DNA of 64,000 nt. Origin: a phage. Location: the sequence record PZ019084.1; one strand, given 5' to 3'. Shown piece by piece: positions 39,154 through 43,217 of this stretch (positions within the stretch are counted from its first letter, which is position 1; every line of letters starts with the position of its first letter). Made by a program: the position numbers and the translations under genes. Below the pieces are notes generated by a model, which saw nothing but the letters and a program-made list of their open reading frames with translations, did not search any database and was not told the DNA's origin.

Positions 39154-39732
39154 TTAATTACCACGGGCTGCATTAGCAACGGCGTAAGCATACTGAACAT
39201 TAGCGTCCTTAAACGTACCTTTAGAGGTATCTATTTCTGCCTTAAAGCCGCCTTTAGCCATAACATCAGCAAATTCTTTACGGAAGGCCATTGCATCAAG
39301 ACCTTTCCATGATGATTTATGCTTGGCGAATTCAAGACCAGCGTAGTTGACAGCCTTAGCTAATTTATTATCAATAACCCATTTACCAGCTTTAGGCACA
39401 AACACCGGGCCTTTCTGTTTAGAGAATAGTTTTAAATTCCAGCGACGAAGGTCACCGTCAGCTTTAACAAAAGCTGCATCCAAGTTACTAGCAACAACAT
39501 CTTGAATATGGCCAAATTTAAGCCCATCAACTTCAATATTTAGATCAGTACGCCAGCGAAGTCCTTCCCAAGCGAAAGCTTTAAAGTCGGAAGCTTTTGT
39601 GGCTAGATATCGTTCAAGTGGAGCAGTTTTAGGGTCAAAGCCGTTTCCACCACGATAGTTCCACTCGTCCTTATTAATGCCTTTGGCCTTTTCCGCAGAA
39701 GCTTCAGCGATAAATTCTTTATACGTTTTCAT
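39154..39732 (-). CDS. capsid-targeted internal protein (192 aa, IPIII-like size)
   Basis: N-terminal MKTYKEFIAEA targeting sequence. Confidence 0.7.
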   Translation of the reverse strand: MKTYKEFIAEASAEKAKGINKDEWNYRGGNGFDPKTAPLERYLATKASDFKAFAWEGLRWRTDLNIEVDGLKFGHIQDVVASNLDAAFVKADGDLRRWNLKLFSKQKGPVFVPKAGKWVIDNKLAKAVNYAGLEFAKHKSSWKGLDAMAFRKEFADVMAKGGFKAEIDTSKGTFKDANVQYAYAVANAARGN

Positions 39733-39803: not shown

Positions 39804-40334
<531 letters not shown>

Positions 40335-40790
40335 TTAAAAGAGGCTGTTCATTATTCGGTAAAGTGAAGGACCCATCACATATTGCCATTGAGCACGAGG
40401 AATAAGAGCAAAAGCATCCATCTCTGGAATCATAACGCCATCTTTATTTTCAAAATAAGACTCGCAATAGCAATTTCTAAACATCTCATGCTCTACTGGA
40501 ATCGTATAATAAAATAACTGTAAGTCTTTATTACTAGAATATTTAAATACACCTAGGTCTTCTAGAAGGTCTGGATTATAATTGCTAAAACCGGTCTCTT
40601 CTAAGCATTCTCTTCGTGCTGCATCTAGTGCGCTCAAATCAGAATTTTCTACACGGCCTTTTGGAATATCCCAGCGATGTGCCATCATTCCAGGCTTACG
40701 AGAACCAGTAACTCGTCCCATAAATAAATCTTTATCTTCTGTCATAAAGATAATACCAGCTGATAGTGTTTTCATTTTAATTTCCTGCAT
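40335..40790 (-). CDS. nudE: Nudix hydrolase
   Basis: Nudix box GRVENSDLSALDAARRECLEETGF. Confidence 0.88.
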   Translation of the reverse strand: MQEIKMKTLSAGIIFMTEDKDLFMGRVTGSRKPGMMAHRWDIPKGRVENSDLSALDAARRECLEETGFSNYNPDLLEDLGVFKYSSNKDLQLFYYTIPVEHEMFRNCYCESYFENKDGVMIPEMDAFALIPRAQWQYVMGPSLYRIMNSLF

Positions 40791-41260
40791 TCAGTGATAA
40801 AGTTATTTAAATTTTGAGCATATTTCTTTTCATCAAAAATCTTTTGCTGCCTACGTAAACGCCATGGCATTTCAATGAACACGCACCATATTCCTGATAG
40901 TACTGCTGCTGTAAAAATATTAACAAGTATGATTAAAAGAATCCAATCTCCCGTTCTGCCTACTGGACTTTCTCCAAAGAAGCAAAATACAAATGATGTC
41001 ACAGGAAAACTAATAATATACCACAGAATCATAATCTTATCTGTGAACCAATCAGCGTTCGTTAATTTAGCGCGACCATTATGAATACACACGAATTTAT
41101 CATCTGTTGCAGTAGATGGCTTAACTGGTTGATATCCCATTCTAAACTCCCTAATCAGCAAATTTTTCATATCTTCGGAACAGCCATTCCAGTCAACTCT
41201 ATCAACTGAAATGCCATCGTCCCCATCATCTAAATCATACCAGCGAGTTTTTAAAATCAT
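40772..41260 (-). CDS. membrane protein (162 aa), tandem paralogue family
   Basis: Two TM helices; C-terminal motif ECRKLK. Confidence 0.55.
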   Translation of the reverse strand: MILKTRWYDLDDGDDGISVDRVDWNGCSEDMKNLLIREFRMGYQPVKPSTATDDKFVCIHNGRAKLTNADWFTDKIMILWYIISFPVTSFVFCFFGESPVGRTGDWILLIILVNIFTAAVLSGIWCVFIEMPWRLRRQQKIFDEKKYAQNLNNFITECRKLK

Positions 41261-41631
41261 TTAATTTTCCTACAATCACTCACAAACTCTTCCATTGATT
41301 CTTTTTCAATATAAGACATGTAGTTATTATATTCCTTTAATTGTATTTTGTAATCCTTTTTTCTTTGCCAATTTATTTTAAAATTATCATAATGAAAATA
41401 TAACATGGTACCAAAGAATGAAAATAATGAAATTGCTATAGTATAACGAAGTTCACTCCAAACTTCTATTATATCTACTATACCGCTGACATTACTGCGG
41501 ATGTTTAAAATAATACAATCAATCATTAATCCAATAAGACTACCAGCAAGAGCTGCAGCCAACGCCACAGCAAAAATTAAAAATGACTCAGAAAAAGAAT
41601 ATTTAACTTTATTTAGTTTTGGCTTTTGCAT
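41257..41631 (-). CDS. membrane protein (124 aa), tandem paralogue family
   Basis: Two TM helices; C-terminal DCRKIK. Confidence 0.55.
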   Translation of the reverse strand: MQKPKLNKVKYSFSESFLIFAVALAAALAGSLIGLMIDCIILNIRSNVSGIVDIIEVWSELRYTIAISLFSFFGTMLYFHYDNFKINWQRKKDYKIQLKEYNNYMSYIEKESMEEFVSDCRKIK

Positions 41632-42026
41632 CGTGATTCCTTAACAAATTTCATAATTTCATTAAATTCATGCATATCTAATTTAAGCTGGTGTTCCTTT
41701 TTAATCTTTTTACACTGAGCTTTCCATTCGCGTACACGTTTACGATAATGTCTTCCTTGATACCAATATCCTACCCAATTTACAGGTACCAATAAAAATG
41801 GAACTACTAATGGAAGAATTAATACTAACAAAAATATTACGCCAGATTCAATATCAGTCATAAAGTCTATAACCATTCCAATAATCAATAGAATTACAAA
41901 TGATATAGCTGTCACAGGACCTATTAATACATCAGTAGGAATTAGCTGGCGCTTTAATTCATACTTCACAGGTTTACTTGGAAGGTATAGTGATGGCTTT
42001 AACATATTCTCTACATTCCTTAACAA
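41613..42026 (-). CDS. membrane protein (137 aa), tandem paralogue family
   Basis: Two TM helices; C-terminal ESRCK. Confidence 0.55.
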   Translation of the reverse strand: MLRNVENMLKPSLYLPSKPVKYELKRQLIPTDVLIGPVTAISFVILLIIGMVIDFMTDIESGVIFLLVLILPLVVPFLLVPVNWVGYWYQGRHYRKRVREWKAQCKKIKKEHQLKLDMHEFNEIMKFVKESRCKSQN

Positions 42027-42582
42027 ATTTTTCTAATAATAAATCGCTTTCAAAACTAGGATTTTCCACGAATTTATCAAAAAGATCATCAACAATATTC
42101 AAGATATTCCTTTTACTAAGAATACGTTTATTTTCATGTTTCGTTTCAGAATCAACTATAAGAGTAAAGAAATATTTCTTTCCCTGAAATTTTACTGTAG
42201 TATCAATATAGAATAAATTTGACTTTTGTAAGTTACGTTTAAACCATGCGTCACTTAAACTATAAACACCGAGATAATCAAAATCGTCGTTTAAATAACA
42301 TACTGTCCATTCAGGAGAAATGAAATCAGTAAATTCAACATCAAAATCACACGTCAATGAATGAATTGATTCAATACTGTTAATAAGTATTCCAGGGCGT
42401 ATTAAAGACTTTTTACCTCTAGAAAATCTTCCAGAAAGACTTTCATCAGTTTCATATGAAGACCCCCAATAGTAATTACGTCCTTCTGCCATACGTTTAA
42501 GAGCATTTAGTAATTGGTCTGGAACATCAACCTGTCTTTGGAACTCTTCAAACATTGAATTGAAATCACTTTGCATTTTCAT
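41974..42582 (-). CDS. hypothetical protein (202 aa)
   Basis: Minus-strand ORF. Confidence 0.55.
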   Translation of the reverse strand: MKMQSDFNSMFEEFQRQVDVPDQLLNALKRMAEGRNYYWGSSYETDESLSGRFSRGKKSLIRPGILINSIESIHSLTCDFDVEFTDFISPEWTVCYLNDDFDYLGVYSLSDAWFKRNLQKSNLFYIDTTVKFQGKKYFFTLIVDSETKHENKRILSKRNILNIVDDLFDKFVENPSFESDLLLEKFVKECREYVKAITIPSK

Positions 42583-42603
42583 TCCTATTTACTCCAAGTA
42601 ATA

Positions 42604-42617
42604 GGGGCCGAAGCCCC
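42604..42617 (-). terminator. CUUCGG tetraloop hairpin
   Basis: ggggc-cgaa-gcccc. Confidence 0.5.
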
Positions 42618-42623
42618 TTATCA

Positions 42624-43217
42624 TTATTTCAGAGAATTAATATATTCCTGAACATCGGCAGAGGTAGTTTCAACCCCGGAAATATTACCGTTAAAGGTTT
42701 CAACTCGAGCAAGGGTATCTTCAATATCAACCTTAGTCAGCGCTGCGATTTCAACTACATCATCGGCAGTACTAATTCCAAGGGCATTTGCTGCACGAGT
42801 TTCACGGATATATTCCAATTTAACTGCAAGTTCTTGGCGAGCATCATCTAATTCAACTACTTTCTTGGCGATTTCAATTCGCATTTCAGCATAACCGTCA
42901 GCTTTAGTAGTCAACTGCTCAGCTGTTCGACGATATAGTAAACCGAGTTTAGCATGCATTGTTACATCTTGACCTTCAGAAAGAAGTTTACGAATTTCAC
43001 GCTCTTTTGATTCGGCTTGTCGATTCTTTTCGACAATAAGTTCACGAATACGTTTTTCTTCATTAATAGATTTAACAGAAGCAGTTTTTAGATCTTTAAT
43101 TTTATCAAGCAGTTTTGCTGCTGCAGCAGTATACTGTTCTTCAACAGATAGATTTTTAGCCATAGCAGAACCAAGTTTAGTGCGAATAAACTCAACAATT
43201 TTCTTCAGTGTGTTCAT
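42624..43217 (-). CDS. coiled-coil protein, PspA/IM30-like architecture (197 aa)
   Basis: Long amphipathic helical repeats; family assignment tentative. Confidence 0.5.

Follow-up and report, generated by a model that had tools for sequence, protein, structure and literature searches.

The window, i.e., the whole 64,000-nucleotide stretch of phage DNA that was analysed, holds three short consecutive genes next to the Nudix hydrolase gene nudE. A preliminary description had taken their products for a locally duplicated family of inner-membrane proteins with a shared C-terminal CRK tail. This locus raises the question of what these genes are, whether they are copies of one another, and what maintains the peptide at their ends.

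Gene identities and translation starts

The window is Tequatrovirus (T4-like phage) DNA. The region is 98.9% identical to one Tequatrovirus genome, is matched by 507 phage records with at least 90% DNA identity over the region, and is syntenic in gene order with T4 e.2–e.5. Protein identity to the Tequatrovirus homologues of e.2, e.3, and e.4 is mostly 80–99%, and the gene order, lengths, and predicted membrane segments of the three ORFs are those of T4 E.2, E.3, and E.4. Judged by these sequence comparisons, the three ORFs are orthologues of the T4 early genes e.2, e.3, and e.4. In T4 these are already catalogued (UniProt Y06M, Y06N, and Y06O; msp7, msp6, and msp5 in GenBank L13089; PHROGs 2203, 2330, and 2604; Pfam Phage_T4_Y06M for E.2 and Phage_T4_Y06O for E.4), and only a function is lacking from their names; the existing annotation of all three reads “conserved hypothetical, predicted membrane protein.” The ORFs are present as first placed, i.e., on the minus strand with 162, 124, and 137 aa, the third being counted from a TTG. 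They had been placed downstream of nudE; in the direction of transcription, they sit upstream of it. All genes, segments, motif copies, and the stem-loop given below are on the minus strand.

The PHROG matches of the cluster proteins have E values of 1e-62 to 1e-109. The ORF of e.2 (40772..41260, 162 aa) was matched over its full length by phrog_2203 (E 1.8e-79, residues 1–160), and homologues of e.2 carry the precomputed assignment PF26896 (Phage_T4_Y06M). The reference T4 e.2 is frameshifted and thereby shortened to 102 aa, whereas the window has the full 162 aa, as do most relatives. In the window, T4, Dhakavirus, Gaprivervirus, and metagenomic relatives, e.2 lies directly upstream of nudE or one gene away from it, next to the endolysin gene e. 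The ORF of e.3 (41257..41631, 124 aa) was matched over its full length by phrog_2330 (E 1.7e-62, residues 1–122) and is syntenic with T4 e.3, lying between e.4 and e.2. Likewise, e.4 (41613..42005, 130 aa from ATG) lies between e.5 and e.3, was matched by phrog_2604 (E 4.7e-70), and has PF26873 (Phage_T4_Y06O) on all its homologues. The run is completed by the orthologue of e.5 (41974..42582, 202 aa; phrog_2607, PF26876 Phage_T4_Y06P), which encodes a soluble protein, and by nudE as its last gene (40335..40775; PF00293, E 1.4e-13).

The e.4 ORF started from TTG spans 41613-42026 (137 aa). This TTG at 42026 is an unlikely start, and translation almost certainly begins at the ATG at 42005 (130 aa), because positions 1–130 of the phrog_2604 profile fall on residues 8–137 of the TTG form, T4 e.4 is annotated as 393 nt, and orthologues begin with MSKPS or MLKPS. 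For nudE, the start is likely the ATG at 40775 within the stop codon overlap with e.2 (ATGA); an alternative in-frame ATG is at 40790, and the shorter of the two forms is the one annotated in Aplg8.

Scans of e.2–e.6 against Pfam-A and NCBIfam gave no match, the NUDIX domain of nudE being the sole match, and a phmmer search with e.2 against 1.84 billion representative proteins returned 10 phage relatives and zero cellular homologues. The label “sulfurtransferase” that some NCBI records give to e.3 and e.4 was rejected as annotation noise, as it is without HMM support. A PspA/IM30-like identity of the neighbouring e.6, which would have pointed to a psp-like membrane-stress module, was also rejected, with no sequence match in Pfam or PDB. 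Full-text literature searches on e.2, e.3, and e.4 found no functional study, and only a CRISPRi-ART supplement names the genes.

Membrane topology, C-terminal motif, and gene junctions

Transmembrane (TM) segments were called from Kyte-Doolittle 19-mer peaks and Hessa-scale sums. Two clear hydrophobic helices each were found in e.2 (TM1, aa 76–96, 40973..41035; TM2, aa 106–129, 40874..40945) and e.4 (TM1, aa 26–47, 41865..41930; TM2, aa 55–80, 41766..41843), with Kyte-Doolittle 19-mer peaks of 2.1–3.1 and Hessa-scale sums of −2.0 to +0.3; TM1 of both contains the microhomology TCCTGTGACA (40997-41006 in e.2, 41910-41919 in e.4). For e.3, TM1 (aa 17–42, 41506..41583) is clear with a Hessa sum of −1.9, and a putative TM2 (aa 62–79, 41395..41448) is marginal at +3.3, the corresponding segment of the Mosigvirus orthologue reaching +4.8. 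The claim of two TM helices per protein is hence borne out for e.2 and e.4, and for e.3, where the second helix is marginal, two helices are probable. No hydrophobic segment was detected in e.5.

The charge distribution in e.2, e.3, and e.4 is consistent with a hairpin with both termini in the cytoplasm (N-in/C-in). In e.2, an acidic conserved N-terminal cytoplasmic domain precedes the two TM helices, and the basic tail closes with NFITECRKLK; e.3 has a basic N-terminus, TM1, the marginal TM2, and a tail ending EFVSDCRKIK; and in e.4, the two TM helices are followed by a 50-aa basic tail ending KFVKESRCKSQN. The AF2 models, which are of medium confidence and derived from shallow alignments, show helices at residues 69–96 and 103–160 of e.2 (pLDDT 74) and two long helices in e.3 (pLDDT 69.5), with the putative TM2 being helical, and fold searches returned generic helical hairpins only. 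The predicted architecture of a two-helix N-in/C-in hairpin with a basic cytoplasmic tail is thus common to all three, and hydropathy and charge bias support their earlier description as inner-membrane proteins with related cytoplasmic tails, with the caveat of the marginal second helix in e.3.

The motif F-[IV]-x-x-C-R-K closes the tails of e.2 and e.3, and their match is real: the last 14 aa of the two proteins align at a BLASTP E value of 0.007, and tail-only shuffles gave a p of about 0.001. The copy in e.2 (40781..40801) is encoded by TTT ATC ACT GAA TGC AGG AAA (F I T E C R K), that in e.3 (41266..41286) by TTT GTG AGT GAT TGT AGG AAA (F V S D C R K), and in both, the AGGA constitutes a Shine-Dalgarno (SD) site 7 nt before the ATG of the following gene, i.e., nudE and e.2, respectively. 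The tail of e.4 had been counted as a third CRK end, which did not hold. Its copy (41628..41648, TTT GTT AAG GAA TCA CGA TGC, F V K E S R C) is degenerate; only “FVKE.R” matches, Cys is absent at the motif position, and the “...SRCKSQN” of its end is not equivalent to “CRK.” The codon of this Cys, TGC, shares its TG with the start codon ATG of e.3 (cgATGCaaa). AAGGA forms the SD site in this copy. A further copy is carried by e.5 (42007..42027, TTT GTT AAG GAA TGT AGA GAA, F V K E C R E), in the form F-[IV]-x-E-C-R-E within EKFVKECREY, 10 residues before the end of the protein and with AAGGA upstream of the e.4 ATG at 42005. This soluble carrier had been missed in the preliminary description. 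Since the motif is also found in a non-membrane protein, it is not the signature of a membrane-protein family. An exact 16-nt repeat, AAATTTGTTAAGGAAT, is shared by e.4 (41636-41651) and e.5 (42015-42030).

Among the 224 ORFs of at least 40 aa starting with ATG in the six frames of the window, the motif is confined to e.2, e.3, and e.5, and a six-frame scan of the whole T4 genome with a relaxed motif gave no sites other than the C-termini of e.5, e.4, e.3, and the remnant of e.2. The window has 64 close or overlapping gene junctions, and at the other approximately 60, the motif peptide is absent. The motif is more than a chance resemblance. A reading as gp21 protease site or capsid-targeting sequence (“I-x-E”; compare MKTYKEFIAE in the adjacent ipIII) was rejected as a four-residue coincidence, because G or M replaces this E in distant relatives of e.2.

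Along e.5-e.4-e.3-e.2-nudE, the genes overlap by 32, 19, 4, and 4 nt in turn, and the SD site of each downstream gene (AAGGA or AGGA) is embedded in the final codons of the gene before it. The run is bounded upstream by a GC-rich stem-loop (AGGGGC-UUCG-GCCCCU on the coding strand; 42603..42618) between e.6 and e.5, which is listed as a putative stem_loop in the T4 record L13089, and from there to nudE no intergenic space is left. The count of promoter-like sequences in the region was not above that of shuffled sequences. Because of the overlaps and the SD sites embedded in upstream genes, the five genes are probably read from one mRNA with translational coupling. The stop/start overlap and the SD site within the upstream coding sequence are also found in coupled T-even genes of the ATGA type; here, in contrast, the C-terminal peptide of the upstream gene is a conserved motif, which recurs over four junctions in a row and is otherwise absent from the genome. 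The motif DNA was tested as a window-wide regulatory element and as a generic feature of coupled junctions, and both were ruled out; RegB cleavage was likewise discarded, as no GGAG occurs within these junctions.

Conservation of the motif and explanations for it

For the comparison across phages, four named genera and metagenomic relatives were considered. Codons vary at every conserved residue of the motif (Phe TTT/TTC; Ile/Val ATT/ATC/GTT/GTG; Cys TGT/TGC; Arg AGG, AGA, CGA, or CGT). The e.2 orthologues from Dhakavirus, Gaprivervirus, and metagenomes, at 30–47% identity, all end in FI[KE]xCR[KN] and have a different gene downstream, and the e.3 of Mosigvirus ends in FIKECRK and is followed by an unrelated gene. 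The position of the SD site varies, being at the x-x codons (AAGGAA, GAGGAA, AAAGGA) in some cases and at the R-K codons (AGGAAA) in others, with no change in the peptide. Invariant residues of the e.2 family are W7, D11, G16, V22, D23, W24, C27, F154, I155, C158, and R159. Within Tequatrovirus, the mean pairwise identity of the tails is 93–95%, compared to 71–83% for most TM segments and loops. As codons change across genera while residues stay, the motif is considered to be selected as protein.

The best explanation, which we hold tentatively and just short of calling it probable, is that E.2–E.4 are individually dispensable hairpins produced from a coupled run, with a protein-selected motif that doubles as ribosome-binding site and with tails that dock. 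Each of them is most likely an N-in/C-in helical hairpin anchoring a basic helical cytoplasmic tail, and the motif is maintained by selection on the protein and also serves as ribosome-binding region of the next gene. In the preferred mechanism, the motif would be the end of an amphipathic helix, through which the proteins may pack together or bind a shared cytoplasmic partner at the membrane; the TM hairpins would be mainly anchors. The hydrophobic moment of the tails supports this weakly: in the 18-mers bearing the motif, amphipathicity is modest, reaching p = 0.05 in e.2 and lacking significance in e.3, e.4, and e.5. In Dhakavirus and Gaprivervirus, e.2 is found without e.3–e.5 at its locus, and in Mosigvirus, e.3–e.5 are found without e.2 at theirs; hence, an obligatory complex of all four proteins is unlikely.

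Alternatively, the motif could be a relic of duplications, tandem or partial, in which a single gene for a hairpin with a tail was copied along with its 5′ junction; it would then be kept by structural inertia and with no shared interaction, the tail of e.5 having been captured by a crossover or being itself the crossover point. This is unlikely. With diversified alignments, hhalign gave probabilities of 65% for e.2/e.3 and 60% for e.3/e.4, both alignments being collinear over TM1, TM2, and tail, and segment-preserving shuffles gave a p of about 0.018 and 0.014, respectively; for e.2/e.4, there was no similarity (0.4%, p = 0.44). Moreover, the e.5/e.4 and e.4/e.3 junctions share AAATTTGTTAAGGAAT...ATG..AAAGCCA and a peptide start M.KP.L, TM1 of e.2 and of e.4 share TCCTGTGACA(...)TCATTTGTA, and the cluster does recombine at these repeats (see below). 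Single-sequence BLASTP among the three proteins was marginal. On the other side, e.2, e.3, and e.4 fall in three different PHROGs and Pfam families, a HMM of the e.2 tail did not retrieve e.3 from the six-frame translation of T4, and a functionless remnant would not stay invariant over four genera whose overall identity is 30%. On these alignments, the local duplication previously claimed, and with it a common ancestor of e.2, e.3, and e.4, is only suggestive.

It is quite unlikely that the shared tail is nothing but a by-product of nucleic-acid constraints, i.e., that similar ribosome-binding cassettes (SD site, A/T-rich spacer, start codon) yield similar peptides. The AGG AAA (R K) of e.2 and e.3 and the AAG GAA (K E) of e.4 and e.5 are indeed properly spaced SD sites, the A of ATGA comes from the terminal K (AAA), two junctions share the exact 16-nt repeat, and among 2016 junction pairs, the two adjacent pairs come 2nd and 3rd in DNA similarity. 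However, F, I/V, C, and R are retained despite codon changes and despite the move of the SD site to other codons, the R-K codons of several orthologues are too near the ATG to act as SD site (AGAAAATGA, CGAAAATGA), and the remaining close or overlapping junctions of the window manage without such a peptide.

An extension of the preferred docking reading, which is very unlikely in this specific form, would make the motif a docking tag for an early membrane platform, with the hairpins of E.2, E.3, and E.4 as anchors, the soluble E.5 recruited by the same tag, and NudE functionally tied. The conserved Cys might bridge chains through metal or thiol, the platform might serve membrane-sited hydrolysis of nucleotides or ADP-ribose against signalling-based defence of the host, and the DNA of the tag might simultaneously act as recombination linker for cassette swaps. 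The linkage of e.2 and nudE is retained over at least four lineages of T-even-like phages. Should the motif turn out to be a docking tag, it would offer a first functional entry point into the e.2–e.5/nudE block.

That e.2, e.3, and e.4 are superinfection-exclusion or lysis-timing factors like Imm, Sp, RI, and RIII, as had been proposed, is highly improbable and found no support: sequence comparisons and PHROG searches were negative, and T4 knock-downs were without fitness effect. The proposal would fit small early membrane proteins from a T-even accessory region beside the endolysin gene e, in which TM segments and periplasmic loops diverge more rapidly than the tails do, as surfaces facing an incoming phage or host envelope proteins might. 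In BLASTP comparisons, though, no similarity was found to T4 Imm, Sp, RI, RI.1, RIII, T, Ac, or the spanins (all E > 0.3; best E 1.1 against Imm and Sp, for e.4 vs. Imm; all E values at least 2.9 against T, RI, and RIII), nor to RI.-1; no PHROG (including those of exclusion proteins), Pfam, NCBIfam, or structural match of such kind was obtained; and e.2 is truncated in T4, while other phages are without e.2 or e.3. Imm (83 aa) is likewise a small early inner-membrane protein with two TM helices, but has neither a long basic cytoplasmic tail nor an F-[IV]-x-x-C-R-K terminus. Similarly, RI, RIII, and holin T are small accessory proteins acting at the inner membrane whose genes are dispensable in the laboratory. 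RI acts via a domain in the periplasm, and the soluble RIII binds the cytoplasmic N-terminus of the holin. The conserved parts of E.2–E.4 are, in contrast to these proteins, the predicted cytoplasmic tails, whereas Sp and RI act in the periplasm.

Dispensability, gene loss, and recombination at the motif

According to the supplement of PMC11879866, T4 knock-downs of e.2–e.5 had no fitness effect and were scored “Not Fit.” The genes e.2, e.3, and e.4 are dispensable, because T4 e.2 carries its frameshift, natural hybrids delete e.3, and the knock-downs were without effect. Being catalogued dispensable T4 genes, e.2–e.4 in themselves make the finding, although real, mostly ordinary, and it changes little. 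What is added is a testable handle, i.e., a seven-residue C-terminal motif that, within the genome, is restricted to four successive genes and whose peptide is maintained across genera, and a small, clear case of dual coding, since the codons of a selected peptide also hold the ribosome-binding site for the gene that follows.

A further addition concerns gene loss. In L004, a ZN18-like phage, e.3 ends in EFVIDCRK-LK and leads directly into nudE, e.2 being precisely missing. In natural e.4::e.2 hybrids, e.3 is deleted, and the join is at TCCTGTGACA in TM1 (at its e.4 position given above). Natural phages have thus lost e.2 or e.3 through recombination inside the cluster, in the case of e.2 with the join at the repeated tail motif, and the repeated motif DNA acts as a homologous recombination substrate by which a whole gene cassette is removed precisely. 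This provides natural evidence that repeats of this kind at gene ends bring about the clean loss of cassettes in accessory regions of T-even phages. Boundary or linker sequences have been proposed for modular gene exchange in phages, such as the gene-boundary homologies of lambdoid phages and the PeSL promoter/stem-loop cassettes of T4-type phages. As in these, short repeats at gene boundaries are the places where recombination gains or loses whole genes; in contrast to them, the repeat described here is coding, comprising a protein motif and a ribosome-binding site instead of an intergenic promoter or stem-loop.

Gene order and identity of the ORFs

The region from 40.3 to 42.6 kb of the window shared 98.9% identity with Escherichia phage ECO07P3, and matched at 90% identity or more in 507 phage records, nearly all of them T4-like Tequatrovirus. 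The genes here are encoded on the minus strand and, in order of transcription, comprise e.6 (42624-43217), a GC-rich UUCG stem-loop (42603-42618), e.5 (41974-42582, 202 aa), e.4 (41613-42005), e.3 (41257-41631), e.2 (40772-41260), nudE (40335-40775/40790), and the endolysin gene e (39804-40298). Because this is the order found in T4, the three ORFs next to nudE were identified as T4 e.2, e.3, and e.4, which are called msp7, msp6, and msp5 in the old record L13089 and Y06M, Y06N, and Y06O in UniProt-derived Pfam names, and which match three separate PHROGs (2203, 2330, 2604; E 1e-62 to 1e-80). They are already known, uncharacterised genes, annotated in T4 as "conserved hypothetical, predicted membrane protein." The lengths of 162 and 124 aa in the preliminary description were retained for e.2 and e.3, but e.4 is 130 aa from the ATG at 42005, which is where the T4 annotation, the PHROG profile, and every orthologue begin, and not 137 aa from the TTG at 42026.

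The stem-loop between e.6 and e.5, which L13089 annotates as putative, forms a perfect 6-bp GC-rich stem capped with a UUCG tetraloop on the coding (minus) strand; instead of a terminator, it may be an element that stabilises the mRNA or a site at which the mRNA is processed. For nudE, in-frame ATGs lie at 40790 and, five codons further on, at 40775, and the second (MKTLS…) has a well-spaced AGGA Shine-Dalgarno (SD) site and an ATGA overlap with e.2; both forms occur in public records (151 aa in T4, 146 aa in Aplg8). The 197-aa e.6 product is strongly helical and coiled-coil-like, and a PspA/IM30-like identity suggested by eye had no supporting Pfam or PDB sequence match. Homologues of e.3/e.4 are named "sulfurtransferase," "DNA primase," or "host specificity protein" in public records, and phage ESCO10 carries baseplate-hub names across the entire e.2-nudE-e stretch; none of these names was backed by profile searches, and all have the look of annotation errors copied from record to record.

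Membrane helices and the C-terminal motif

Two transmembrane (TM) helices had been proposed for each protein. Hydropathy gave two strong helices for e.2 (aa 76-96, 106-129) and e.4 (aa 26-47, 55-80); for e.3, aa 17-42 formed a strong helix but the second (aa 62-79) was marginal, with a Hessa-scale sum of +3.3 (+4.8 in the Mosigvirus orthologue). All three have net basic N-termini and tails and net acidic loops, which fits N-in/C-in hairpins. In the AF2 models of e.2 and e.3 (pLDDT 74 and 69.5), TM2 runs on as a single long helix into the tail, and e.2 has a small alpha/beta domain at its N-terminus.

The shared C-terminal CRK holds for e.2 (NFITECRKLK) and e.3 (EFVSDCRKIK) but not for e.4, whose end (KFVKESRCKSQN) has no more than "FVKE.R" in common with them and whose Cys codon overlaps the e.3 ATG, so that the "CRK/RCK" alignment is not equivalent. 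A further copy, EKFVKECREY, overlooked initially, lies 10 residues before the end of the soluble upstream protein e.5. With these four corrections (e.4 start, e.3 TM2, e.4 "CRK," e.5 motif), the original observation is real. When all 224 ATG-ORFs of 40 aa or longer in the six frames of the window were scanned, only e.2, e.3, and e.5 matched [FILVM][IVL].[EDKS]CR[KE]. The relaxed F[IV]..[CS]R[KEC] gave exactly four matches across the complete T4 genome read in six frames, all at the C-termini of e.5, e.4, e.3, and what is left of e.2. No motif-like peptide was found outside the e cluster at the 64 close or overlapping gene junctions counted in the window. The adjacent internal-protein gene ipIII (39154-39732) starts with MKTYKEFIAE, the capsid-targeting sequence, which includes an I-x-E site for gp21; its resemblance to the "EFI.E" part of the motif is superficial and was judged coincidental.

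Every copy of the motif holds the SD site of the following gene, in e.2 and e.3 as TGY AGG AAA WTW AAA TGA (AGGA, 7-nt spacer, ATGA overlap) and in e.4 and e.5 within GTT AAG GAA, as would be expected if the motif were a pure by-product of the ribosome binding site (RBS). However, distant orthologues keep the peptide despite altered codons and downstream genes. Mosigvirus e.3 (38% identity), whose downstream neighbour is an unrelated gene, ends in FIKECRK (TTT ATT AAG GAA TGT AGA AAA TGA). In Dhakavirus, Gaprivervirus, and metagenomic contigs, relatives of e.2 (30-47% identity) end in FIEECRK, FIKECRK, FIKGCRK, or FIKMCRN, with a 74-78-aa gene in place of nudE directly downstream. Their codons vary (Arg CGA/CGT/AGA; Cys TGT/TGC; Phe TTT/TTC), the SD site shifts between the x-x and R-K codons among orthologues, and outside the N-domain only F154, I155, C158, and R159 are invariant in the e.2 family alignment. 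Since codons vary and the SD site shifts while distant orthologues keep the residues, the motif is selected at the peptide level and dual-coded with the RBS. Conservation within Tequatrovirus is highest in the tails, whose mean pairwise identity is 93-95%, compared with 71-83% across most TM helices and loops.

Relatedness, natural variants, and distribution

The proposed locally duplicated family is tentative. Single-sequence BLASTP among the three proteins was marginal and profiles from Tequatrovirus alone were uninformative. With profiles including other genera, hhalign gave probabilities of 65% for e.2/e.3 (TM1 to tail), 60% for e.3/e.4 (full length), and 0.4% for e.2/e.4, and segment-composition-preserving shuffles gave p values of ~0.018, ~0.014, and ~0.44, respectively; an e.2-tail HMM searched against the T4 six-frame translation did not retrieve e.3. 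Common descent of e.3 with each neighbour is plausible, not established. At the DNA level, an exact 16-mer (AAATTTGTTAAGGAAT) occurs at both the e.5/e.4 and e.4/e.3 junctions, the two adjacent e-cluster junction pairs ranked 2nd and 3rd by alignment score among 2016 junction pairs, and TCCTGTGACA in TM1 is common to e.2 and e.4. These traces fit local duplication or recombination. Other minus-strand junction pairs in the window (21843/34354, 31770/32170, 19769/21193; alignment scores 31-33) equal the e-cluster junctions in mutual similarity, a hint that the early region may hold more such repeated cassettes around gene starts.

In a ZN18-like IMG/VR contig of 167,948 bp (L004 2417-3032 and 3375-4174), e.2 is absent and the e.3 end EFVIDCRK-LK joins the nudE start directly and in register, a precise e.2 deletion between the two tail motifs; e.5 is split into ORFs of 145 aa and 93 aa. 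In UFV05-like phages, e.3 is missing and the N-terminal part of e.4 is fused in frame to the C-terminal part of e.2 (P0143, 106 aa, 2001-2321 of the OP555981.1 locus L017, 5 contigs); this natural hybrid is joined at a TM1 microhomology, "PVT." In reference T4, e.2 (NC_000866 67475-67960) is frameshifted relative to the window and annotated with 102 aa because 1 nt is deleted right after TM1 and 1 nt is inserted 77 nt further on; its tail (…NFITECRKLK) is intact in an unannotated 53-codon open frame. The truncated form also occurs in other phages, e.g., Yersinia phage fPS-2, and e.3 is truncated in some phages. T4 e.2-e.6 were without fitness effect in a dCas13d knock-down screen (PMC11879866 supplement). 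Each of these genes is dispensable on its own, and the set is in flux.

While e.5-e.4-e.3 travel as a group in Tequatrovirus and Mosigvirus, e.2 is spread more widely. Outside Tequatrovirus it lies in a conserved block (L010 722-2676; L011 734-2679; L012 725-2673; L018 2312-3996; L019 234-2071) between a phrog_1843 protein (228/229 aa, ending EFPMEGW) and an acidic phrog_2900 protein (74-78 aa), followed by the Nudix hydrolase nudE; no function is annotated for either PHROG neighbour. Among 1.84 billion representative proteins, e.2 had only 10 relatives, none of them cellular.

Putative roles of the cluster

On the best reading, the e.2-e.4 products would be membrane-anchored early proteins with cytoplasmic working parts, i.e., the tails and the e.2 N-domain. 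Translational coupling would yield them in fixed proportions, and the C-terminal motif, which E.5 has too, may serve for packing or docking. Three rivals to this reading were kept: the motif as purely a by-product of the RBS, the motif as a relic of duplication that has no function, and the suggested roles in superinfection exclusion or lysis timing. No sequence similarity linked the proteins to T4 Imm, Sp, RI, RIII, T, Ac, or the spanins. Novelty is modest and lies in a genome-unique, dual-coded C-terminal motif that is also a recombination site. Library and fold searches gave no informative match. The e.2 model matched a 124-aa viral protein, BFVD A0A220NRA7, with 21% identity across 122 aligned columns (E 2.7e-4); the e.3 model did not recover this entry.
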